Positions 4,368-59,783 of a stretch of 64,000 nt of DNA are shown here, piece after piece; position 1 is the stretch's first letter, and the number at the start of each line of letters is the position of its first letter. The stretch is from a virus (lineage: Duplodnaviria; Caudoviricetes). The stretch lies in the IMG/VR virus record IMGVR_UViG_3300027917_004314; one strand, given 5' to 3'. A program made the position numbers and the translations under genes. The notes beneath the pieces are model-generated. The model saw only the letters and a list, made by a program, of their open reading frames with translations. It was not told the origin of the DNA and did no database searches.

Positions 4368-5399
4368 ATGTCGTTATTTAGTACATATGGAAAACAAGGC
4401 GAGCTGAATGCGAGTTCCGTTAGAGATGCTCTTGCGAACATTGTGAAGTACGCTAGCGTACTTGACGATTTGGCCCCTGCAAACCAGGGTCTAGCGCAAC
4501 AGCCATCCTATACGGATGATCAGCGTAACGAGCTTATTAAGCGCGCTTTGATGACGCAAGAAGGCAAGATTGCTCTTGGCCAGGCAATGGCCAATCCGAT
4601 CCGCAGAAACTTGGATTATCAAGGAGTGGGCCGGAGAGTTTTGGTTGTCGACCCGTTGCCCCAAGGTGCTCTTCCTGTATACGACCGCGATATCGATGTC
4701 GCAGCTACCGTTGTTTCTAGCAATGGTTCTGCTCCAGAGAGCCGCGTGTTCGGTGACAGGGTGACTGTACCTGAGTTTGAGGTTGTTTCTAATCCTACTG
4801 TGCGTATTGCTGAGGTAAGAAGGCGTCGTTTTAACGTGATCGACCGTGCTCAGCAGAAGGCAAGGCAAGAGATCCAGGCACAAGAAGATGCTAACATTTT
4901 CGCGTCCCTCGATTTCGCAGCCGATGCAACGCTTGGTGGAGAGAACACTGCCCAGGATATTGCTGATGCGGGACTTCTAAAGCGTGACCTTTCCGAGATT
5001 AAGGTTCAGGTAGACCGTTGGGACCTTGTAACTACTAAGTTCCTCATGAATATCATTGAATTTAATGACATTCTGAATTGGGCAACTGGTGGTGGCCAAG
5101 GATCTAATGGCGGCGAGGTTGATCCTGTTACGATGAGAGAGATCCTTCAGACTGGTCTATATGCCCACATCTGGGGTGCAGACATCATCGTTTCTAAGAT
5201 CGTCCCAGTCGGAACCGTTTTCGGAACCGCCGATCCAGAGTTCGTAGGTGTTATGCCTGTCCGTCAGGACATCGAGGTACTACCTGCCGATGAGCCCAAG
5301 CAGCTAAAGCTTGGTTGGGTTATCTCTGAGATCATCGGAATCGGCATCGTCAACCCACGCGGTTGCGCTGTTGGTCGTAAGTCTGTTGCTGTTGGCTAA
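4368..5399 (+). CDS. Major capsid protein (HK97-fold type)
   Basis: 343 aa; AGGAGG RBS; followed by a strong terminator. Motifs IRRNLDYQGVGRRVLVVDPLPQG and HIWGADIIVSKIVPVGTVF...EIIGIGIVNPRG are typical of large tailed-virus capsid proteins. Confidence 0.85.
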   Translation: MSLFSTYGKQGELNASSVRDALANIVKYASVLDDLAPANQGLAQQPSYTDDQRNELIKRALMTQEGKIALGQAMANPIRRNLDYQGVGRRVLVVDPLPQGALPVYDRDIDVAATVVSSNGSAPESRVFGDRVTVPEFEVVSNPTVRIAEVRRRRFNVIDRAQQKARQEIQAQEDANIFASLDFAADATLGGENTAQDIADAGLLKRDLSEIKVQVDRWDLVTTKFLMNIIEFNDILNWATGGGQGSNGGEVDPVTMREILQTGLYAHIWGADIIVSKIVPVGTVFGTADPEFVGVMPVRQDIEVLPADEPKQLKLGWVISEIIGIGIVNPRGCAVGRKSVAVG

Positions 5400-6014: not shown

Positions 6015-6050
6015 TACATTCCCCCAAAAAAATGAAATATGGAGGAAAAG

Positions 6051-7295
6051 ATGAGTGGTTTTGCCGGAAGAAGTAGCTTCTTGACTGACGCAGACGGTGC
6101 GTTTATCACTAGTTTTCAAGATGAATCTAAAGATGCATTCACTCGCCTGAGAGTTTCAAACAATCATTTGCTTTTAACATCGCAACAGACTTTTGATTCT
6201 TTACCGTTAGTATGGGATACGGAGCTAACAGGTTCTGCTTCAACGTTGTTTTTGCCAGACGAATCAACTACATCGTTGATCGTAACCGGGGATTTAGGAG
6301 ACAAAGTAATCAGACAAACAAAGCGTTATTGGCTTTATCGTGCTGGGCAAGGGCACAATATTCATATGACGTTCGGAGATGGATATCAAGCAGCCGGTAT
6401 TAGAAAACGAGTTGGGTATTTTGATGGATATAATGGAATATTTTTAGAAATCACAGAGAATGATATAGCTGTGGTATTGCGTTCATATACATCTGGTATT
6501 GTTGAAGAACGGCGTATTACACAAAAAAACTGGAATTTTGATCATTTAGATGGTACCGGTAGGAGTGGCATCACGTTAGATTTAACAAGCACCCAAATCT
6601 TTCATATTGATTTTCAATGGCTTGGAGTTGGTAGGGTACGCACCGGTTTTGATATTGGTGGTAAAACATATTATATACACATATTTGAGAACGCTAACAG
6701 ATATCCCTCTGTATACATGAGTACAGCGACACTACCTTGCCGATATGAAATAGAGGCGGTTGATGATTGTCTGGGTGGAACATTAAATCACATATGTAGT
6801 TCCGTATTCAGAGAAGGTGGTGATGAAGAAGAGGGTATTCGTACGTCAGCTACTACTGGCTTTGCGGCAACGACAGCGACAACCACGCAACGCAGTGTAT
6901 TATCCCTTCGTTTAAGAAGTTCTCATATACGTGGATTTTTACAACCAATTAACTCGTTGATCAACAATCGCGGCACTGAGAGCGTTAGATGGGACGTGGT
7001 ACTTAATCCAACGCTTGATGGCACGCTTTCCTGGATTAACATAGGACAATCCGCACAGCAATCTATAACGCAGCTAAATTATACTGCTGGTAGTGGTCAT
7101 CGTATAGCATCTGGATACGTTAATGCAGCGGTGGGGGTAGTAACAAATAAGCAGGTAGCGAACTCGGATATAAACTCCATATTGGGTGTTGCGGCAGATA
7201 TAGGAGGAACATCTGACGTTTTGTCAATAATTGTAGAGTCTTCTACTGGCAGCCAAACAATTGATGCTATTTTATCGTTTTTAGAATTATTTTAA
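6051..7295 (+). CDS. Virion structural protein, lectin/concanavalin-like
   Basis: GGAGG precedes ATG 6051. The motifs DAFTRLRVS and IDFQWLGVGRVRTGF resemble widespread phage structural proteins. Confidence 0.6.
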   Translation: MSGFAGRSSFLTDADGAFITSFQDESKDAFTRLRVSNNHLLLTSQQTFDSLPLVWDTELTGSASTLFLPDESTTSLIVTGDLGDKVIRQTKRYWLYRAGQGHNIHMTFGDGYQAAGIRKRVGYFDGYNGIFLEITENDIAVVLRSYTSGIVEERRITQKNWNFDHLDGTGRSGITLDLTSTQIFHIDFQWLGVGRVRTGFDIGGKTYYIHIFENANRYPSVYMSTATLPCRYEIEAVDDCLGGTLNHICSSVFREGGDEEEGIRTSATTGFAATTATTTQRSVLSLRLRSSHIRGFLQPINSLINNRGTESVRWDVVLNPTLDGTLSWINIGQSAQQSITQLNYTAGSGHRIASGYVNAAVGVVTNKQVANSDINSILGVAADIGGTSDVLSIIVESSTGSQTIDAILSFLELF

Positions 7296-8417: not shown

Positions 8418-8456
8418 AAAGTCACTATTCGAGTGGCAAAAAAAGGAGAAGGAAAA

Positions 8457-8953
8457 ATGACAGAACAAGTTAAGAATGGAGTAGTCGTTTGGTCGTAGGC
8501 CCCTTGGTGCAGTAATGTGCCAAGAGCATTGGGTGAATTGCTGGGAACCTCAGCACGTAACGGTGGTGGCAATCAGCAGCCAAGTTTGTGAAGTTTATTT
8601 AGTAGCAAAAAGGTTCAGAGACTAGAAAAGTGAGTAGAACAGCGATAATCTTTTCCACGAGCGCCCGATATCCTTTTAGGATAAAAATATAGTCCGACAC
8701 TCTAAAGAAATTTAGAGATCTGGTTTAAACGTCCAGAGCAACAGATGTTAACGACAAAAGAGGAATTGGATTTATTAAGCCTGATGCTGGAGATGATGAC
8801 ATGTTTGTCCATTTCAGCAACATCGTCGGTGAGCCAGGTAAGTTTAAGTCTTTGACCGCCGGTCAGAGAGTATCTTTTACTATCGGAGCCAACAATAAGG
8901 GTCCTCAGGCAGAAAACGTAGTAATTCTAGAAGAACCAAGTACGGAAGTATAA
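8457..8953 (+). CDS. csp: Cold-shock domain protein split by a group I intron (exon 1 8457-8493, exon 2 8748-8953; 80 aa spliced)
   Basis: The joined exons read [80 protein letters not shown], with RNP1 (RGIGFI) and RNP2 (FVHF). AAGGAG RBS upstream. Absent from the ORF track. Confidence 0.92.
8494..8747 (+). ncRNA. Group I self-splicing intron, subgroup IA-like, ORF-less, 254 nt
   Basis: 5' exon ends in U and the intron ends in G. Conserved elements: P AATTGCTGGGAA (8536-8547), Q AATCAGCAG (8571-8579), R GTTCAGAGACTA (8613-8624), S AAAATATAGTCC (8684-8695). P2 has a GTAA loop (8503-8524); P3 pairs GGGTG/CGCCC; P7.1 pairs GAAAAG/CTTTTC; P9 is CTCTAAA-GAAA-TTTAGAG. Confidence 0.92.
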
Positions 8954-29294: not shown

Positions 29295-30050
29295 ATGGTA
29301 ACGGATCACCGCGTTTACAGTGATTTATTCGACCTTGCAAATTTTGTCCGCCAGGTAGCGGTTTCGCAGGGAAAAAATTTACTTATTGACACTTTAAGGG
29401 AACACTTTAAAGCGGATAGATTCTACAGGTATACTACAGATGCGTTTGGTTTCCCGTTAACGCCAGACATGACAGATCTTCCTGCAGACATTCAAGAAGA
29501 CCGTACTACTAGGATATTTATTGGCGACGTATTCAGATACGATAAACGTTACTGGCCCGCTATAGTGGTTAGGTACGGATCTGGAAAATATAAGCCCGTG
29601 AGTTTCAACCAGAATCAAACTGTTAGATACAGAATGGATTTGGTCTTAGATGGATACGGTGGGCGTTCCTATGTTAATGTTCCAACACACCATGTAGTAG
29701 CTGGCGCATGGGAGCAAACATTTGAGATTTTAATAGCTTCTGAAGCCATACCGGATAGAGAAGAGCTTACTGATATCGTGTCTTCGTTCTTGATAGGTAA
29801 AGCGAGACAAGAGCTTTACGAAGCCGGTTTGTTTGTTAGAGGCGTCTCCATGAGTGGGGAACGTGAAGAAGAGTGGGGCAATGACAAAGTGTATTTGCAA
29901 AGTATCACCGTTGAAGCTTACTCTGAGTGGAGGCGAGAAATACCGATAGATAATCTGGTCGAAACTATAAATTTCTGTTTTAACTACGGTTTGTTTGGAT
30001 CAGGAGAATATTCGATAGATACTATTACAGTAGACGTTTCAGACACCTAG
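29295..30050 (+). CDS. Tail terminator / tail completion protein
   Basis: 251 aa, last plus-strand gene before the sheath; PAIVVR...FEILIAS...DIVSSFL pattern. Confidence 0.55.
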   Translation: MVTDHRVYSDLFDLANFVRQVAVSQGKNLLIDTLREHFKADRFYRYTTDAFGFPLTPDMTDLPADIQEDRTTRIFIGDVFRYDKRYWPAIVVRYGSGKYKPVSFNQNQTVRYRMDLVLDGYGGRSYVNVPTHHVVAGAWEQTFEILIASEAIPDREELTDIVSSFLIGKARQELYEAGLFVRGVSMSGEREEEWGNDKVYLQSITVEAYSEWRREIPIDNLVETINFCFNYGLFGSGEYSIDTITVDVSDT

Positions 30051-30544
30051 TTTCCTTTTTCCCATTTTCGAATGGCGCTACAATTTTTACATAACAACAC
30101 ATAGTGCTTTACTTTTTCTCTCAGTTTATGTAACGACATATTTCTTGCTTTGCTTAGCCTAAAAATGTCATTTTCTGAATAAAATTCATATACTGGTAGT
30201 GGATAAGGTATTTTACAATCGTTACATACCCCGCCCCTTTCCTGAATCATCCTTTCTAACTTCTCTTCATATTTAAGATTTTTTACCTCTTCTTGACATA
30301 TTATACAATAACTAAAAGGTTTCCCACTAGTCTTTCTAATATAAAATTGCTCCTTGTCTTTGATTTTTTGGCACCTTGCACAGTATGCTTCATTGCTGTT
30401 TAACTTAATAATATAGGACCTGGTATTCCGACTGCCAAGCGGCGAGCACTCTAGGCAAAACTTTCTGCCGGACAGGTTTATGATTTTATTATCTATTTTA
30501 ACACTGCTGGGGAAATTTTTGTTACAATTTTTACAAGTAAGCAT
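30047..30544 (-). CDS. Multi-zinc-finger protein with a degenerate HNH-like domain
   Basis: Six CxxC motifs. GGVCNDC...VYEFYS...VLLCKNCSA lacks the HNH catalytic histidines. Only credible minus-strand gene; GAGGTG RBS on the minus strand. Confidence 0.7.
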   Translation of the reverse strand: MLTCKNCNKNFPSSVKIDNKIINLSGRKFCLECSPLGSRNTRSYIIKLNSNEAYCARCQKIKDKEQFYIRKTSGKPFSYCIICQEEVKNLKYEEKLERMIQERGGVCNDCKIPYPLPVYEFYSENDIFRLSKARNMSLHKLREKVKHYVLLCKNCSAIRKWEKGN

Positions 30545-52700: not shown

Positions 52701-52971
52701 TATTGTATTAGACAGTTTTAGTAACAAAGAAACAACGGTACAACAAGATGTTACAAACAACATTTCTGCTACGCTAAATGCGTCGGCGCTTGGAACAACG
52801 CTAGATAAATCTGACATTTCTGCTAACGCATATAATGTGGCCGGATTGGATAGGATAAGAATCACCAGGTTTAACAAAACTGGTGTTTTAGGAACTGTAC
52901 TCAGTGTAACTGCGCAAAAAAGTGAATATCTGGCGGCCGGAACGGTTACCGTTACTGTGGAGGAACGTTAA
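49732..52971 (+). CDS. Baseplate J-like wedge protein with insertions
   Basis: GQDLTNYASNYGVTRQSGTKAIGTVVF...GSIGNIA...FTGGSNLESDAALRSRIL. Confidence 0.85.
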   Translation: MVTFKSFDNIVLDMVQQLRLTQPSLDTKPATVARDLMIDLQAQQVSEIYEALREIAALQSISNVTGQDLTNYASNYGVTRQSGTKAIGTVVFTFKNIDSDITISAGTLVRTANGLPFSTVSAINITTSQANSLRATATRLRDRLNTAGITDEFAVEASVEANSAGSIGNIASYSITLTNASDANNVTNLSSFTGGSNLESDAALRSRILAAFAGTNVGTAVGYRSIVLNLASSIDALVVEPGDPLMTRDGTVTVVDSNGTVTVSEPGTGGRVDIYIMGENLQSATDSFVFNDLSGRGDPTDSNNDFIMGQSSLTADTSLTLNSRRVATLSEGAEIPTQPVSNIVSVSGSSSGPNFVEQYTDSAGNLQGNYALVKDTGAAGGSPFGLDKFVWTSDRIELEGESAVKGEYNSIDELTFTDILKVGAIDQEVQVTNENSSVSASNRSYITVSHTPVKTVTRVFNLTTGERYTIIDQNPDGSGSTNTTGRVQISGRTLPTASDILQVDYIWVFPHDQYVDFDNFDPRDTLDEAQDSVEWGFSNYIRDEITTAVLDSYNNLTVTTTYPISRILSVNTYETEVAVVSSQSTMTVSKAVSNIHSITDTTLSGNPEIYNTSAGDGSYSNLVITLPTDTIAESGDSATVIYNLVDISDVDGYDVATALNNVITLNPYTVVSTGTSVRVNYVADFLNIMPTTNISALPVSTDGFNSFLDVGGYQPVQNTYSGSTVVTNQRRSPSNLSVTTSSIPDSGTLRIVGTTINKVTDAVFTSTSTNLDFSVPIRVSEGLSTSAIIPSTIYIARIVSLEEVTLSTSNEVQTVVTDYDLTNYAIKNSRWDRANAIEQTALLATRALLTSTETNTGSPIRTGTILRATFYYAKQNDSEDLFYSRNGTAITDKRFGAVSSISRIAGFQNSSGTVSGRVLIDSFNQPLPNITYLVDYDYTAPKENERITINFEYNKLIVDATQAVENGRPITADVLSKAATKIELDVEAVIIVLDSFSNKETTVQQDVTNNISATLNASALGTTLDKSDISANAYNVAGLDRIRITRFNKTGVLGTVLSVTAQKSEYLAAGTVTVTVEER

Positions 52972-55900
52972 TGGCTAATAACCTGCGCATTCAAAGACTG
53001 GCGGTTAAAAGTAGCACTTTATTAGAGTTGTCTTTTAACTACCCTTTGGATTCTGGTATAGGAATTAACAACATAACAATCGAGGGTGCTAGCGGTGGCA
53101 CCAGTGATGCAACCATTTTATCAGTATCTGTATCTACAAACATCTTAAGTATTAGTGTCAGGCCACTTATACCAAGGGCGCATTATAAACTTACTGTGCG
53201 GTCTACGTCTTCTCAAACAGTCACTGGCGTGCATGGGCAACCATTTCTTGAGGATGGTGCCACAAATGTTGTATTTTTTGTTGGACAGCAAGAAGAAAAT
53301 GTTGTTAGAGATGATATTCTTGGAGAGCTTAATAATGGCATTTACAACACTGATGAGGGGACGTTAATTTTTGATACAATCGACGCCGGAGCGAAAGAGA
53401 TTTTAGTTAACGGGCAAATCGCCGGTGAAGTGCGAAGCGCTAATTATGTCTCCATTGAAGTAGCAGACGAAATATTGACGAGAGGAGAAGGCCCATTTGA
53501 CAGGTTTGCCAATGAGAGTGTTTTTCAAGTGTTAAGGGTTGGTTCCACGTCCACCGGAGCATCTGCTGCAGCCTCCATATCTTTTGCCGAATTTCCGTCT
53601 GATCCTGTTAGTTTACAAAGGGTATTGGTTGAAGACGAAGAGGTGTCAAACACATCTAATGATGCGAACAGTTTTGTTGGGTTAGATATTAGTTTGTCAA
53701 AAAGTCCTGTTATTCAGCTAACATCTCTTACTTTAACTAGAGATACAACTACATATACATATGATATTAGCGCCTATAAATATGGTGTAAAAGAAAGTAA
53801 ATATGATACAGATAACTCATATCAAGCTATAGATCTCGATGATAATCAAATTAGATTAAGTAGCGCGGCTGTTGGACCAACATTCCCATTCCCACAAGGC
53901 AGCGATACAATTACTGCATCGTATTACTATAAAAGGGAAGGTAGGATTGTAGAGTCAGACACTGTAGAGGTATACACTCCGGTTGATATTGTAAGGGAAT
54001 CAGTACCCGCTGTATCAGTGGCATTTACACTTGGCAACGCGCCAATCATTAATAGTGCTGGTGACATCCCAACTTTGAACGGCGTTACCTGGCTTGATCC
54101 CGGACAGAATTTTGATCCAACAAAAAAGCATGCTGCCTTTACAACAGAACTAATTTACAACACATCAAACTTACCTAAGGCGCCAGGCGAATACTCAGTA
54201 AACTACTCAACAGGTCAGGTTATAGTCTTTGGAGTAGACGGCAGTGGCGTAGATGGTACAACTGTAACGCCGCCGGTAGCATCTTATAAATATAAAAAAG
54301 TTTTTCAAGAAGGTTTGGATTATAGATTTTTCTCAGACATAAATGAAATAGCATCACTGCCAGGCAGAGACCTTCGAGATGGTCCCGGAACTGTTGCATT
54401 TGAATATGAAGATACGTTTGCAGATGGCTCAGATTTTGAATTTTCTTCCCACATCGAGGTTATTGATGAGAGAGTTAATAACAATTTAATTGATACAATA
54501 GGATTGAAAACTACTTATAGCCCTGTAAGAGAAGTGTTTAGAATATTTAATGAAACAACCGGCGAAATCTATACTACCACAAGGATAAATGGAAATGAGG
54601 TATATTTTTCTTCTGTGAGCCCACCAAACACTGTAGATGTCTCTCGTGAAAGAGTCGAGTTTGATCAAGTAATTCAATCGCAATTGGTAGTTACAGATGA
54701 ACTTACCATAGCTGGTAAAGCATTTGTTGCTTTTAGGATACTATTTACTGATTCAGATATTATGTCCGCATCTGGTAGTTTTATCGGGGCAAGTTTTAAC
54801 AGCTCTTTAACGTTTTCTGACACCACGATATTCGAAGATGAGTTCTTTTATGACCCAAACGACACCGTAAACGAAAATTTAGCGAGACTGCAGAACGTTG
54901 GCGATTATATGGTTAATTATGAGTCTGGTATTGTATATGTAGCTGCCACTTCTGGATCCAGCACAGCTGTTGGTGATGCATCATATCGTCGCGGCAAAAT
55001 TAAAACCAGAAACGACCATATTATCCGTGTCGACGATGTGTATAGAAGCGCAAGTGTGACAGCTGCAAACACCGAAACTATGACTGTTGGTACGGTTAGT
55101 GATACCACGGTAGATATTACAAATCTGTCTCATGTGGGTGAGCGCACTGTAGATGGCGCCACTATTGACGTTTCTAGCACTTCAACTATAACGGTAAGTT
55201 CAGATATATTCAGATTGTCGCATGTCTATCAGGTTACAGATTTGCAAACCAGATGTGATCCGATAGATTTTGCAGAAAGTGCTGTTGTTTCTTCTGGCAC
55301 TCCAACTGTAGTTACATTGGATGAATATGGTGTGGCAATTACGGATGATAATTACGGATCCGGCTTGTTGGTGAAAACTGCCGGGTCTAGAGAATATGTG
55401 GAAGCCGAAAGAATATCAACAATGTTTGCTGCAGGCCTAGCAACATTGGTTTCAGCCATTAGTGTGAATCCTCTAGATGATACGACCAATTACTATTCGC
55501 AAGGCGCCGACGGATACATTGATGCTGTAACTAATAGGATTTATTTGCCGACAGGGTCTGGTATCGCTGGCAGTTTGGTGGAAGCCACATATAAGGTAGC
55601 TTTACGCCCCGGCGCGTCCGTATTGGTAGACTATATTACAGGCGAGATGTTTATAGATTATACGTATACTACTGATGAAATATTAATTAGCTACGAATAT
55701 GGGGATAATGTATTGGATTGGAGTATCTCAGATTCCCTGAGTTCTGGTACTGAATATTATGTGACCTATAGATATGGTGCGCTGAGGCAACCATTGGTGG
55801 ATAATTTTGGGGTTTTAACCAGTCTGGAAGAGCTAGCTACCATACCAGATGCATTAGATAGAGAAACTTATCGTAATGCTGTATCTGGCTCACTCCAATC

Positions 55901-58900
55901 ATTTATTAAAGGGCCAACAATTCCGGCTATAGAATTGTTGGTCGAGGCTTTTACACAGATAACCCCCAACATTACCGAATCTGTTTTCTTAGAGTGGATT
56001 TTGGGCAGAGATTCTCTACACTTAATGGAAATGGAATTATCTGCTGATAGCGACGATGATTTGCCGACCTATGCTCCTGGCAAGTTTGGCAACGGTTTGC
56101 TGCTAAACAAAGCGGGACAAACGGCTACAATTCCAGCTAATTCTAATATAAGTTTCCGCGAGGGTACGTGGGAGGCTTTTGTAACCCCAGAGTGGAAGGG
56201 GATAGATAATGATGCTACTCTGACATTTGATATACTTTTTGATGGACAAGAGCGCCTCAATAATATATTTATCGGAGCAGACGCCGCTAACCCAACAGAG
56301 ATTCCGTTCTCGTTGGATAGCACTGACCCAAGCGTGCTGGGTAGACCCAGCAATTTACATTCAGCAACTGGATATTTCATTTGGTTTGACACGTCAGCAA
56401 GCAAATGGCGCATGCGTAATAGGGCTCCCATATCTGAAAGCCGTTTGTTTTCTGGCAGGATTACAACTTCAGGCGAGTTCCATGACGTAAAAGTTGCTAG
56501 TACTGCAGATGGTTACGATGGATATGACGGCTATGAGATAAATGAAATAAACGATTCTCTAAGATCGACAAACGAAACTATCAGATTTAGTTTTGTCGTA
56601 GACGGATATGATTCACTTAACATGGCGTTTGATGCCTATGACGCGTATAATGGAGATATTGCAGGGTTTGATGGAATAGATTTTACATCGGACGATATAC
56701 ATTATTTCTTTGATACCGGATATTTAGCGAACAGGTGTCGTATGTCATTGTACAAAGATGGCAAGGGGTTTCTTCGTTATAGAGTTTATGACGGCATTGG
56801 CCGCGTCAAAATGTTAAGTCACAACATTAATGATTGGGGTCTTAACGAAACTCACCACATTGCAACGTCATGGAAAATAGGCACTATAGAAATGAAAGAC
56901 GAGTTACACTTATTTGTGGATGGCGAAGAAGTTCCTAATACATATAGATTTAGTGGTTATTTAAGCGTGCCGGGTAGCTCGACACTATATATGGATGAGG
57001 CTTCAGAAATTCTAATTAGCTCTGTATCCAGCCCAACAATAGGTGGCATTGATCTTTCCACCACATCTGGGTCTGATATTGTATCATCTGTTGGTTCGGA
57101 TTTCAGTTCGGTGACGGTTGGTAGCAGATTTTTGATTCTAGATAGTACTGCTGATGGCGTTGCCACACAAACATCGCCGTATGTTTATGTGAGATCCATA
57201 CCGAGCCCAACATCTCTGCAACTGGAGACGGGCCCACCAGGGTCTGGGACACCATACAATGCGGTTTCAACTTTAGACGATGTAAGATTTTCTGTGAACC
57301 CGCTTACTTTAGAAACAGTAAGTGACCCCGAAATAGAAAGAATAAGAGTATTTGAGTTAGACACTGGCGGACTTGAAACAGAGCTTTATTCGCCATCAAC
57401 GCTAACTCCGGATTACGGATTTACAGAAGATGGATACAACGATATAGTTAATATTTATAACGGTTTGGCCGTAGGTTCGAGCGTAGTGTTGAAAACTTAT
57501 GGTCTAAACATCCAACGATGCATCAATTATGCGTATGTTTGGCCAGACAGATTGACAAATTTGCTAAATGTTGTGACACCTCCGCCAACAGCTATTTCTA
57601 AAATTAATGTCACCAATTTAATAACTAGGCGAACATCTGTTGGTTTGGGCACATTCGCTCTGATAGCGACTATAGTGGGTGGACACATAGTACCTGTGTT
57701 GACGTCAAACCTGGAGTTTTGTCAACCATCTAATACCATAACTGGCAGAAGACTTACGGCAACATTGTCTGGGGATAATATTAGTTTCTCTGGACTCAAT
57801 CGGATATTTATTATCGGATCAACGTCAGATGGCTATGGCTTAGAAACTATAACCTTTACATCTACTGGTAAACAAACAACTACCGGTTATTTCACAGAAA
57901 TTACAGATATTATAGCATCATTTACACCTATAGATTCTAGCAGAGATGCCGGAAGCGTTGAAATTCGAGAAGCCGTCCCTATAAATTGGCAAGAAAATGA
58001 TGGCTATTATGCAGAAATACATCTGTCAGTACGGGAGCAGAATGGCATTAACGGCACCGCCACAGTAGGAACTGGCAGGGTAAGAGACGTTTCTGCTAGA
58101 TTTGGGGAAGAAGATATTGGTAAAACTTTCAATATAGATTCGCCTGGTTCTATTGCTGGTGTATACACAGTACAAGATGTCCCACTAGATCCATCTGGCA
58201 CAGTAAAAGACTCAGATACGGTAATTTTGGACACAACGTGGGGGGATGGATATTCTAGCATTCAATGGCGGCTACTTACCACTTCCTATGGTGACAGTGG
58301 TTTTGCCAACGGACTGCTCACTTTTGAGACTGTTGGCACAGGCGGAGATCCATTTTTGCTTAGAAGTTGTTGGTACGAGGTAGACCACCCTGCATTTCTG
58401 ATTATTCCGTGGGATCAAATCCCAGATAAAATATATGTCGGCTCTGACATGAATGGAGAAAACCAGGCAAACGCAGTTATAGACGAGATGCGTATATTAG
58501 ATGAGCTGTCGGTTGACACTGGCCTTGGGGAATCTGCACCAAGTTCCGGAAGGTCCATAACAACAGATTCTTTGGTAGTGGAGGAATTTACGGAAACAAC
58601 TCAAACGCTCGGATTATTCCATTTCAATGATGACGTTACAAATAGCGCTGATTTCTGGTCCAGTTTTTCTGGCTCGTACAGACAAAGCGAAAACAGCGTT
58701 AATAGCAATTTTGAGCAATCTGGGGTGTTTATTTATAATCAGCCACTACAGTATGATAACGCATCCATTTTTAACAATGATGAGGGCACGATTGAATTTT
58801 GGATTAGTCCAATTTTGGACGGGTATAACGACCCGACAATTAGATACTATGTAGATTTGTCACCAGATTTGCAAGCTGCAGCGACGGCAGTTTCGGCGTT

Positions 58901-59783
58901 GATAGTACCACTACCGTCTAGGGCCAGATCAGTAAGCTCTGTAACTATAACGGGCAGTGATACCAACTATTTCACGAATGGTAGCCTATCTGCAGATGGC
59001 AATACTGTCACTCTTGGGCAGCCACTTCCAGGAAATGTCCGTGATGTTACAGTTACATTTGTGCCGATAACCAGTCAGGGAGATAGATTTAGCATTTTTA
59101 AAAATGCAGCTAATTCTTTAATACTACGCGTAATTGCTTCCGGAATCACATATCAGATTACAGTGCCGATATTCTGGAAAAAGAATACGTGGCATAGAGT
59201 TTTCGTGGGTTGGGATCTGAACAATTTAGATAATCAGGATAGACTTATTATGTTGGTAGATGGAATGGAAACCGGGACTGCCCAGTATAGCAGTGACTCT
59301 GTCGTGCTAGGCTCCAGCAAGGTAGGGACTCGGGCTGCTAGAAACATTATGACTGACATTAACCTTGTTGATTCATTTAATACGGTTAATATTGGCGCTG
59401 ATTTTGCGGGTCAATACTCGGCATTGGCAAGAATTGATAATATGAGATTTTCTAGTGAGTTAAGAACAGTTACATATCTGGGTGGTGAAGGACCAGGTCA
59501 ACTACTGGGAAGAGATTTAATATATACAAGTAATACTGATACAGCACAACCAGTTGTTAGTGATGCGCTTACACGATTGTTATTAGATTTTGACACTACG
59601 CAGACCGAAGTAGAAAATCTAATCACTATAAGAAATGCTACTACTGGCATATTCGACTTTTTTGTAGAAGTTATCGATACGTTTAGCCTTGCAGATACGC
59701 AACTGGCGCACGATTTGATTGAAGCACTAATTAATAGGATAAAGCCGGCTCACACCAGAGCTTTTGTGAGCTTTACGAAATAG
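52971..59783 (+). CDS. Giant baseplate wedge / fibre-attachment protein with an Ig-like domain and two LamG-like domains
   Basis: 2270 aa. GPTIPAIELLVEAFT wedge motif; EGTWEAFVTPEW...HHIATSW...LFVDG and EGTIEFWISP...WHRVFVGW; ends INRIKPAHTRAFVSF. Confidence 0.7.
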   Translation: MANNLRIQRLAVKSSTLLELSFNYPLDSGIGINNITIEGASGGTSDATILSVSVSTNILSISVRPLIPRAHYKLTVRSTSSQTVTGVHGQPFLEDGATNVVFFVGQQEENVVRDDILGELNNGIYNTDEGTLIFDTIDAGAKEILVNGQIAGEVRSANYVSIEVADEILTRGEGPFDRFANESVFQVLRVGSTSTGASAAASISFAEFPSDPVSLQRVLVEDEEVSNTSNDANSFVGLDISLSKSPVIQLTSLTLTRDTTTYTYDISAYKYGVKESKYDTDNSYQAIDLDDNQIRLSSAAVGPTFPFPQGSDTITASYYYKREGRIVESDTVEVYTPVDIVRESVPAVSVAFTLGNAPIINSAGDIPTLNGVTWLDPGQNFDPTKKHAAFTTELIYNTSNLPKAPGEYSVNYSTGQVIVFGVDGSGVDGTTVTPPVASYKYKKVFQEGLDYRFFSDINEIASLPGRDLRDGPGTVAFEYEDTFADGSDFEFSSHIEVIDERVNNNLIDTIGLKTTYSPVREVFRIFNETTGEIYTTTRINGNEVYFSSVSPPNTVDVSRERVEFDQVIQSQLVVTDELTIAGKAFVAFRILFTDSDIMSASGSFIGASFNSSLTFSDTTIFEDEFFYDPNDTVNENLARLQNVGDYMVNYESGIVYVAATSGSSTAVGDASYRRGKIKTRNDHIIRVDDVYRSASVTAANTETMTVGTVSDTTVDITNLSHVGERTVDGATIDVSSTSTITVSSDIFRLSHVYQVTDLQTRCDPIDFAESAVVSSGTPTVVTLDEYGVAITDDNYGSGLLVKTAGSREYVEAERISTMFAAGLATLVSAISVNPLDDTTNYYSQGADGYIDAVTNRIYLPTGSGIAGSLVEATYKVALRPGASVLVDYITGEMFIDYTYTTDEILISYEYGDNVLDWSISDSLSSGTEYYVTYRYGALRQPLVDNFGVLTSLEELATIPDALDRETYRNAVSGSLQSFIKGPTIPAIELLVEAFTQITPNITESVFLEWILGRDSLHLMEMELSADSDDDLPTYAPGKFGNGLLLNKAGQTATIPANSNISFREGTWEAFVTPEWKGIDNDATLTFDILFDGQERLNNIFIGADAANPTEIPFSLDSTDPSVLGRPSNLHSATGYFIWFDTSASKWRMRNRAPISESRLFSGRITTSGEFHDVKVASTADGYDGYDGYEINEINDSLRSTNETIRFSFVVDGYDSLNMAFDAYDAYNGDIAGFDGIDFTSDDIHYFFDTGYLANRCRMSLYKDGKGFLRYRVYDGIGRVKMLSHNINDWGLNETHHIATSWKIGTIEMKDELHLFVDGEEVPNTYRFSGYLSVPGSSTLYMDEASEILISSVSSPTIGGIDLSTTSGSDIVSSVGSDFSSVTVGSRFLILDSTADGVATQTSPYVYVRSIPSPTSLQLETGPPGSGTPYNAVSTLDDVRFSVNPLTLETVSDPEIERIRVFELDTGGLETELYSPSTLTPDYGFTEDGYNDIVNIYNGLAVGSSVVLKTYGLNIQRCINYAYVWPDRLTNLLNVVTPPPTAISKINVTNLITRRTSVGLGTFALIATIVGGHIVPVLTSNLEFCQPSNTITGRRLTATLSGDNISFSGLNRIFIIGSTSDGYGLETITFTSTGKQTTTGYFTEITDIIASFTPIDSSRDAGSVEIREAVPINWQENDGYYAEIHLSVREQNGINGTATVGTGRVRDVSARFGEEDIGKTFNIDSPGSIAGVYTVQDVPLDPSGTVKDSDTVILDTTWGDGYSSIQWRLLTTSYGDSGFANGLLTFETVGTGGDPFLLRSCWYEVDHPAFLIIPWDQIPDKIYVGSDMNGENQANAVIDEMRILDELSVDTGLGESAPSSGRSITTDSLVVEEFTETTQTLGLFHFNDDVTNSADFWSSFSGSYRQSENSVNSNFEQSGVFIYNQPLQYDNASIFNNDEGTIEFWISPILDGYNDPTIRYYVDLSPDLQAAATAVSALIVPLPSRARSVSSVTITGSDTNYFTNGSLSADGNTVTLGQPLPGNVRDVTVTFVPITSQGDRFSIFKNAANSLILRVIASGITYQITVPIFWKKNTWHRVFVGWDLNNLDNQDRLIMLVDGMETGTAQYSSDSVVLGSSKVGTRAARNIMTDINLVDSFNTVNIGADFAGQYSALARIDNMRFSSELRTVTYLGGEGPGQLLGRDLIYTSNTDTAQPVVSDALTRLLLDFDTTQTEVENLITIRNATTGIFDFFVEVIDTFSLADTQLAHDLIEALINRIKPAHTRAFVSFTK

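Follow-up and report, generated by a model that had tools for sequence, protein, structure and literature searches.

A probably selfish, ORF-less group I intron interrupts the cold-shock protein gene of a phage

The cold-shock protein gene (csp) of this phage is interrupted by a group I intron at positions 8494 to 8747 of the window, the whole 64-kb stretch of DNA that was analysed. The presence of the intron in csp was confirmed, and its splicing is predicted from the sequence. The best explanation, with a probability of about 0.8, is that this is an ORF-less intron of the IA type which is selfish and mobile, whose competence for splicing has been kept by selection, and which is largely neutral for Csp and serves as no dedicated regulator. 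A sequence-only reading of this DNA had proposed a group I intron, and a covariance-model search detected one, with a match to Rfam RF00028 (group I intron) at 8479 to 8717 on the + strand that covered model positions 1 to 253 of 253 with a score of 90.7 bits (gathering score of 50) and an E value of 6.6e-22. This was the sole Rfam match in the 64-kb window, and the intron was the only group I intron detected with Rfam in the 161-kb virus record.

Deletion of the 254 nt from 8494 to 8747 produced an in-frame, 243-nt reading frame encoding an 80-aa protein that ends in ...EV, in which ATG 8457...TGG T(8493) was joined to TT AAC GAC (8748...). The predicted junction of the ligated RNA is ...GUUUGGU/UUAACGAC... 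(the slash marks the point of joining), which as DNA reads ...GTTTGGT/TTAACGAC.... Exon 2 alone matched Pfam CSD PF00313 (8.4e-19; profile positions 9 to 64 of 66), and the missing start of the domain, G-x-V-x-W-F, was encoded by exon 1. RNP1 reads K-R-G-I-G-F-I (after N-D), with Ile where the first aromatic residue is usual, and RNP2 reads M-F-V-H-F. The intron splits the Phe codon of the W-F-N motif between its first and second bases, a place where this conserved gene shows its strongest conservation. In the unspliced frame, T(8493) is followed by CG TAG, and because the UAG at 8496 to 8498 is in frame, unspliced RNA would yield only a 13-aa peptide. No ORF of more than 36 aa was present inside the intron in the ORF list for 8494 to 8747. 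The two claims that removal of this segment restores csp and that the unspliced message encodes 13 aa were therefore upheld, the second by the reading frame and the first by the in-frame 80-aa product and by intron-less alleles with an identical junction.

The anatomy of the intron was assigned from the Rfam alignment, the minimum free energy (MFE) fold and comparison with relatives (Table 1). All conserved core positions agreed with the Rfam consensus. P1 is short, consisting of three exon-guide pairs plus one intron-internal pair, and the GGU at the end of exon 1 forms its 5' strand. In P10, U8748, U8749 and A8750 (UUA of exon 2) pair with G8498, A8497 and U8496 of the guide, and UAG 8496-8498 hence has a double role as the P10 guide strand and as the in-frame stop of the unspliced RNA. 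The intron was assigned to subgroup IA because a hairpin sits between P7 and the 3' strand of P3; a single hairpin only was evident at the P7.1/P7.2 position.

Table 1. Positions of the csp exons, the intron and its structural elements, and neighbouring genes in the window
Feature	Position	Strand	Details or basis
Other ORF regions of the window	4368-5399, 6039-7295, 52971-59783		Head/virion gene setting; very long ORFs
csp ribosome-binding site AGGAG	8444-8448	+	Read from sequence; 8 nt 5' of start codon
csp exon 1, 37 nt	8457-8493	+	12 codons (...GTC GTT TGG) plus T of Phe codon
ORF-less group I intron, IA type, 254 nt	8494-8747	+	Rfam RF00028, covariation
P1	8491-8494 with 8498-8501	+	GGUC/GGCC; U8493.G8499 wobble, G8492-C8500, G8491-C8501
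Internal guide sequence UAGGCC	8496-8501	+	G8499-C8501 pair with exon 1 GGU (P1)
P2	8503-8511 with 8516-8524	+	9 bp, GUAA tetraloop; MFE fold, Rfam alignment
P3	8528-8535 with 8662-8669	+	Rfam alignment; covaries
J3/4 AAU	After 5' strand of P3 (8528-8535)	+	Rfam alignment
P4	8539-8544 with 8573-8578	+	Rfam alignment; invariant
P5	About 8548-8569	+	Irregular pairing
P6	8579-8581 with 8612-8614	+	Rfam alignment; P6a extension; invariant
P7	8618 and 8620-8624 with 8690-8695	+	A8619 bulged
P7.1	8625-8630 with 8650-8655	+	Between P7 and P3'
P8	8670-8674 with 8678-8682	+	Within P7, then J8/7
P9	8700-8706 with 8711-8717	+	GAAA tetraloop
P9.1	8719-8723 with 8733-8737	+	Rfam alignment, MFE fold, relatives
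Terminal G	8747	+	Final intron base
csp exon 2	8748-8953	+	Starts with TT of Phe codon; stop TAA 8951-8953; Pfam CSD PF00313
Free-standing HNH gene, 105 aa	9439-9756	+	Pfam HNH PF01844 2.8e-8; PHROG HNH families

Related introns were collected by a core pattern scan of IMG/VR and ranked with nhmmer, and the window intron and 15 relatives (16 introns) were aligned with MAFFT. The closest intron, at locus L200 (nhmmer score of 81 bits over positions 3 to 249), exhibited many compensatory differences. Across the 16 introns, the proposed structure paired 72% of cells, compared to 33 to 45% when the partners were slid by 1 to 3 columns, and none of 500 shuffles reached any of five measures. P7 was paired in 98% of cells, and P4, P6 and P7 were invariant. 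Double-sided changes were concentrated in P3, P7.1, P8 and P9, including five of the six P7.1 pairs and four of the five P8 pairs; P1, P2 and P9.1 scored poorly in this count because the MAFFT alignment was not fitted to structure. The structural elements named in the sequence-only reading were all recovered: the P/Q/R/S elements by the full-length RF00028 match and the invariance of P4, P6 and P7, the P7.1 stem of an IA-type intron by a hairpin at that position with the double-sided changes described above, the short P1 with its U.G pair by a P1 of the same design in L200, and the terminal G by the alignment of the L200 terminal G at position 8747.

Two short stretches near the junctions attracted attention. 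The sequence TGGTTTAAACG at 8721 to 8731, in P9.1 and its loop, resembles the ligated junction TGGT/TTAACG; it was rejected as a meaningful look-alike, since its GG lies within the P9.1 stem and the UAAA-containing loop recurs in relatives located in other genes. GUCGUU of exon 1 (8484-8489) is perfectly complementary to AACGAC of exon 2 (8750-8755), the two flanking the intron, and three synonymous differences from an intron-less relative, L005 (at 8486, 8489 and 8752), all improve this pairing, which could be an aid to holding the exons, a trace of co-conversion or the product of chance.

The search for intron-less csp alleles in related phages that had been called for was successful. In L002, a syntenic IMG/VR locus with the same gene order and no Rfam match, csp is uninterrupted and reads ...GTA GTA TGG T/TT AAT AAC.... 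L006 is the same DNA as L002 and forms part of a 452.6-kb metagenome contig, which indicates that phages of this type are very large. L005 (76% identical over exon 2) and L007 (68%) were also uninterrupted at the exact junction, so that three independent syntenic relatives (L002/L006, L005 and L007), with 63 to 76% amino-acid identity to exon 2, all carry TGGT/TT at the predicted junction, their proteins reading ...GTVVW F N... with no interruption. Among approximately 110 other csp loci from viral and metagenome collections, all readable ones had W-F (W-V in one case) joined to the domain. As intron-less alleles are common to the relatives, the predicted ligation product represents the normal state of csp. 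Alleles of this kind were not detected in the samples that contain the intron, in that no contig skipping 8494 to 8747 was found in eight runs aligned to the region.

These alleles also bear on the position of the 3' splice site. The same intron could be imagined to end after G8744, which is followed by AUG UUA AC and would keep the frame, the product having W-Y-V-N in place of W-F-N. Such a site is extremely unlikely, however, as the relatives all read W-F-N/D/S with no additional residue, an exon 2 that starts with AUG cannot pair with the UAG of the guide whereas one that starts with UUA can, and the L200 terminal G aligns at 8747 and not at 8744.

Close copies of the intron were present elsewhere. 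Contigs from a second marine-sediment sample of another study were identical across both junctions, a wetland contig of ∼95% identity covered exon 1 into the intron, and in contigs of ∼91% identity from two further studies the intron was followed by a csp exon 2 that has diverged (..KPDDSEKDLFVHF..). The ∼91%-identical copies exhibited compensatory changes from U-A to C-G in P9 (8703/8714), from G-C to A-U in P9.1 (8722/8734) and from U-A to C-G in P3 (8529/8668), the 5' side of the last being derived from a loose-end consensus. These double changes indicate that the RNA fold is under selection, and their pattern looks like that of a working ribozyme and not of a decaying one. As these copies are close relatives, a single gain followed by vertical descent could explain their presence.

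It is very improbable, given these changes, that the intron is a dead relic in which splicing has been lost and that the phage's csp has become a pseudogene. In favour of a relic are the shortness of P1, the irregularity of P5 and searches of sequencing runs, in which none recorded as RNA was found to contain this region; nevertheless, the fit of the core to the Rfam consensus is complete, both exons are intact, the ribosome-binding site is strong, the CSD match is highly significant, and the allele persists across samples of several studies. In a wastewater run labelled RNA-seq, many contigs matched only the P3-P5 core (8528 to 8588) at less than 90% identity; these contigs are the cores of other group I introns and not the csp intron.

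Evidence for a selfish, mobile element came from the genes in which related introns reside. The L200 intron interrupts an unrelated gene of ∼240 aa (L200 5094-6070, - strand), with 21 codons before the intron and 219 codons after it, for which no Pfam or PHROG match was obtained. Its P1 has the same GGU/GCC plus C-G pair, and its P10 is fitted to exon 2 of its own gene. Just 4 nt separate the start codon of this gene from the end of a free-standing endonuclease-VII-type gene (L200 6066-6776, - strand) that precedes it. When every ORF in the 82 loci that carry related IA introns (which lie in L114 to L232) was included in an iterative profile search, 20 endonuclease-VII-type ORFs were found, 18 of them no more than 700 nt from the intron, although the DNA within 1 kb of it amounts to only 25%. 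Two further members of this family were confirmed as endonuclease VII with PHROGs. These ORFs occur beside or inside the introns, further examples being L120 3213-3635 (+) and L194 757-1275 (+). No convincing endonuclease-VII-type ORF was found in the 161-kb record. The intron family can be considered mobile because endonuclease-VII-type ORFs accompany it. An in-frame stop close to the 5' splice site is typical of phage group I introns, as is their insertion into conserved coding regions (PMC3984707).

An intact free-standing HNH gene follows the intron downstream at a distance of 692 nt. Relative to L002, where the two flanking genes adjoin each other (at L002 3653), this gene is precisely inserted, and its start and the stop of the preceding gene overlap. 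A sub-hypothesis on mobility, which is compatible with the selfish-intron explanation, is that the HNH protein acts in trans, cutting intron-less csp at or near the insertion site, with repair then copying the intron in. Such collaborative homing is possible but unlikely. It would suit an ORF-less intron with a free-standing endonuclease nearby, it is established in two phage systems (PMC3984707; PMC6083498), and L200 too has a free-standing endonuclease gene by its intron; however, the endonuclease and the intron do not occur together in the relatives. The HNH gene is missing from the intron-less L002, and this joint absence had suggested a linkage, which was weakened by the presence of a 64%-identical ortholog at the same position in the intron-less L007 (3505-3825). 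The HNH gene and the intron are, given this ortholog, separate elements that are not co-inherited, and the divergence of the HNH is about that of its neighbours. Furthermore, the HNH and the endonuclease-VII-type ORFs are members of different families, the HNH has no relatives beside the 82 related introns, a whole gene separates it from csp, and it could home to a site of its own or be a packaging-type HNH. A second free-standing HNH gene was observed at 30047 to 30544 on the - strand (PHROG 2255, 2.8e-24), the strand opposite to all of its large neighbours.

The neighbourhood of csp contains genes for the head and virion, including those of a major head protein (PHROG 2522) and a virion protein (PHROG 1645). 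Some ORFs of the window are very long, up to 2270 aa, and IMG/VR tags the 161-kb record as a 'provirus' that is 40% complete. The source, an uncultured large phage from marine sediment, is probably a huge phage.

The claim that csp is an unfamiliar host gene for such introns holds as far as the searchable literature goes, since full-text searches found no paper on an intron in a phage cold-shock gene. A review of bacterial group I introns gives polymerase, ribonucleotide reductase, terminase, recA and flagellin genes as hosts (PMC3984707). Pattern searches for other csp introns at this site recovered none. None of 119 IMG/VR loci with the intron-core pattern lay beside a CSD, and none of six matches to a pattern of TGGT, core and GTTYAAY was in csp. 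Uninterrupted csp genes dominated the matches to a csp-exon pattern, and a version that excluded these gave two matches, both uninterrupted M-F variants. A relaxed core plus RNP1 pattern gave no matches in IMG/VR and two chance matches in GTDB genomes. Genomes of huge 'Jug' gut phages contain 18.5 group I introns each on average, spread over many genes (PMC12880540), and with ∼18 introns in each such genome a new host gene is not very surprising. The element itself is of a known kind, most likely an ordinary selfish intron; what is new is its host gene.

The introns of T4 td, nrdB and nrdD and of other phages, mostly of subgroup IA2, to which more than half of viral group I introns belong (PMC11835236), are likewise group I introns of the self-splicing type in conserved phage protein genes, and share with the csp intron a P7.1-type insertion, peripheral helices with GNRA caps, a stop codon in frame shortly after the intron begins, and the terminal G (PMC3984707). 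The csp intron differs in its host gene (which was not found in the literature searched), in having no ORF, in its 37-nt exon 1 and in showing a single evident hairpin where P7.1/P7.2 would be. Among isolated phages, the best matches were the introns of Shewanella phage 1/4 (RNR alpha) and of Flavobacterium psychrophilum FpV/FPSV phages, with identities in the P3-P6 core of 86% (57 nt) and 73% (125 nt); the resemblance is confined to the core, and the hosts are RNR alpha and an unannotated gene. In the collaborative homing of cyanophage S-PM2, the free-standing enzyme F-CphI targets the psbA intron site and uses an Endo VII catalytic motif (PMC6083498). As in this phage, a group I intron lacking an ORF has a free-standing endonuclease gene nearby, and it is the relatives of the csp intron that are accompanied by endonuclease-VII-type ORFs. 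The gene near csp, in contrast, is a small HNH (PF01844) 0.7 kb off, with a gene between, and is also present in the intron-less L007. The 'Jug' phages resemble the present one in having short ORF-less group I introns in very large genomes with many stand-alone HNH genes around them. Some of their introns were confirmed by metatranscriptome reads. They differ in that their 18.5 introns per genome are mainly in terL, nrdD and a polymerase gene, with csp unmentioned, compared to one intron in the 161-kb record (PMC12880540).

In the proposed splicing mechanism, the RNA would fold to the P3-P9 core, and an external guanosine would attack 3' of U8493, held as a U.G pair with G8499 in the short P1. 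The guide would next align exon 2 by pairing of UUA with UAG (P10), the terminal G8747 would move into the G-binding site in P7, and ligation of the exons to ...GUUUGGU/UUAACGAC... would restore csp. Because the stop codon lies in the guide sequence, a ribosome that terminates there would be expected to sit over P1 and the first part of P2, and splicing is probably in competition with translation of the short exon 1.

The remaining proposal of the sequence-only reading was that splicing gates Csp by temperature or GTP and that Csp, as an RNA chaperone, in turn influences how its own intron folds. Nucleic-acid structure is melted by CSD proteins, E. coli CspA and CspE among them, and for the T4 td group I intron several RNA chaperones promote splicing (PMC3017892; PMC3984707). 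In csp itself, the 37-nt exon 1 with a stop in the guide would probably set folding and translation in competition, and an MFE hairpin (UGCUGGG/CUCAGCA, 8539-8545/8549-8555) rivals P4, because UCAGCA occurs twice (at 8550 and 8573), and is a possible folding trap. The hairpin is common to L200 and absent from the other relatives. Regulation of this kind is nonetheless quite improbable, and the proposal was not supported. The nearest csp relatives have no intron, which indicates that expression of Csp in this lineage does not need one; the closest intron lies in an unrelated gene, and its family is tied to homing-type endonucleases. The host cell, moreover, has chaperones of its own. Any group I intron is somewhat dependent on temperature and GTP, and such dependence alone would be no proof of regulation. 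The known case of group I splicing for gene control, the c-di-GMP allosteric ribozyme of Clostridioides difficile (PMC3984707), has an adjoining sensor aptamer, whereas Rfam detected no aptamer, sensor domain or other RNA family adjoining the csp intron or elsewhere in the 64-kb window, and the intron is a minimal 254-nt core. We consider equally improbable the autoregulatory loop that could be built on these features, in which the intron would misfold in the cold or early in infection, for example via the P4-competing hairpin or ribosomes on the 37-nt exon 1, and the first Csp or cold-induced host Csps would melt the trap and speed splicing. If such a loop did exist, Csp output would be switch-like and temperature dependent, and this would be a natural case of chaperone control of a ribozyme inside the chaperone's own gene.

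For the selfish intron that we favour, these findings have several implications. The annotation of this locus is corrected, as gene callers would obtain a 13-aa stub and a truncated fragment instead of a complete 80-aa Csp. As csp encodes an RNA chaperone, the gene and its intron form a compact natural system of ∼500 nt for asking if a chaperone affects a ribozyme in its own message. The strong association of this IA intron family with endonuclease-VII-type ORFs provides a lead on how ORF-less copies move. Finally, the W-F-N/RNP1 region of the cold-shock protein joins the conserved protein sites that are invaded by phage group I introns, and the insertion in csp fits the rule that such elements target the most conserved sequences.
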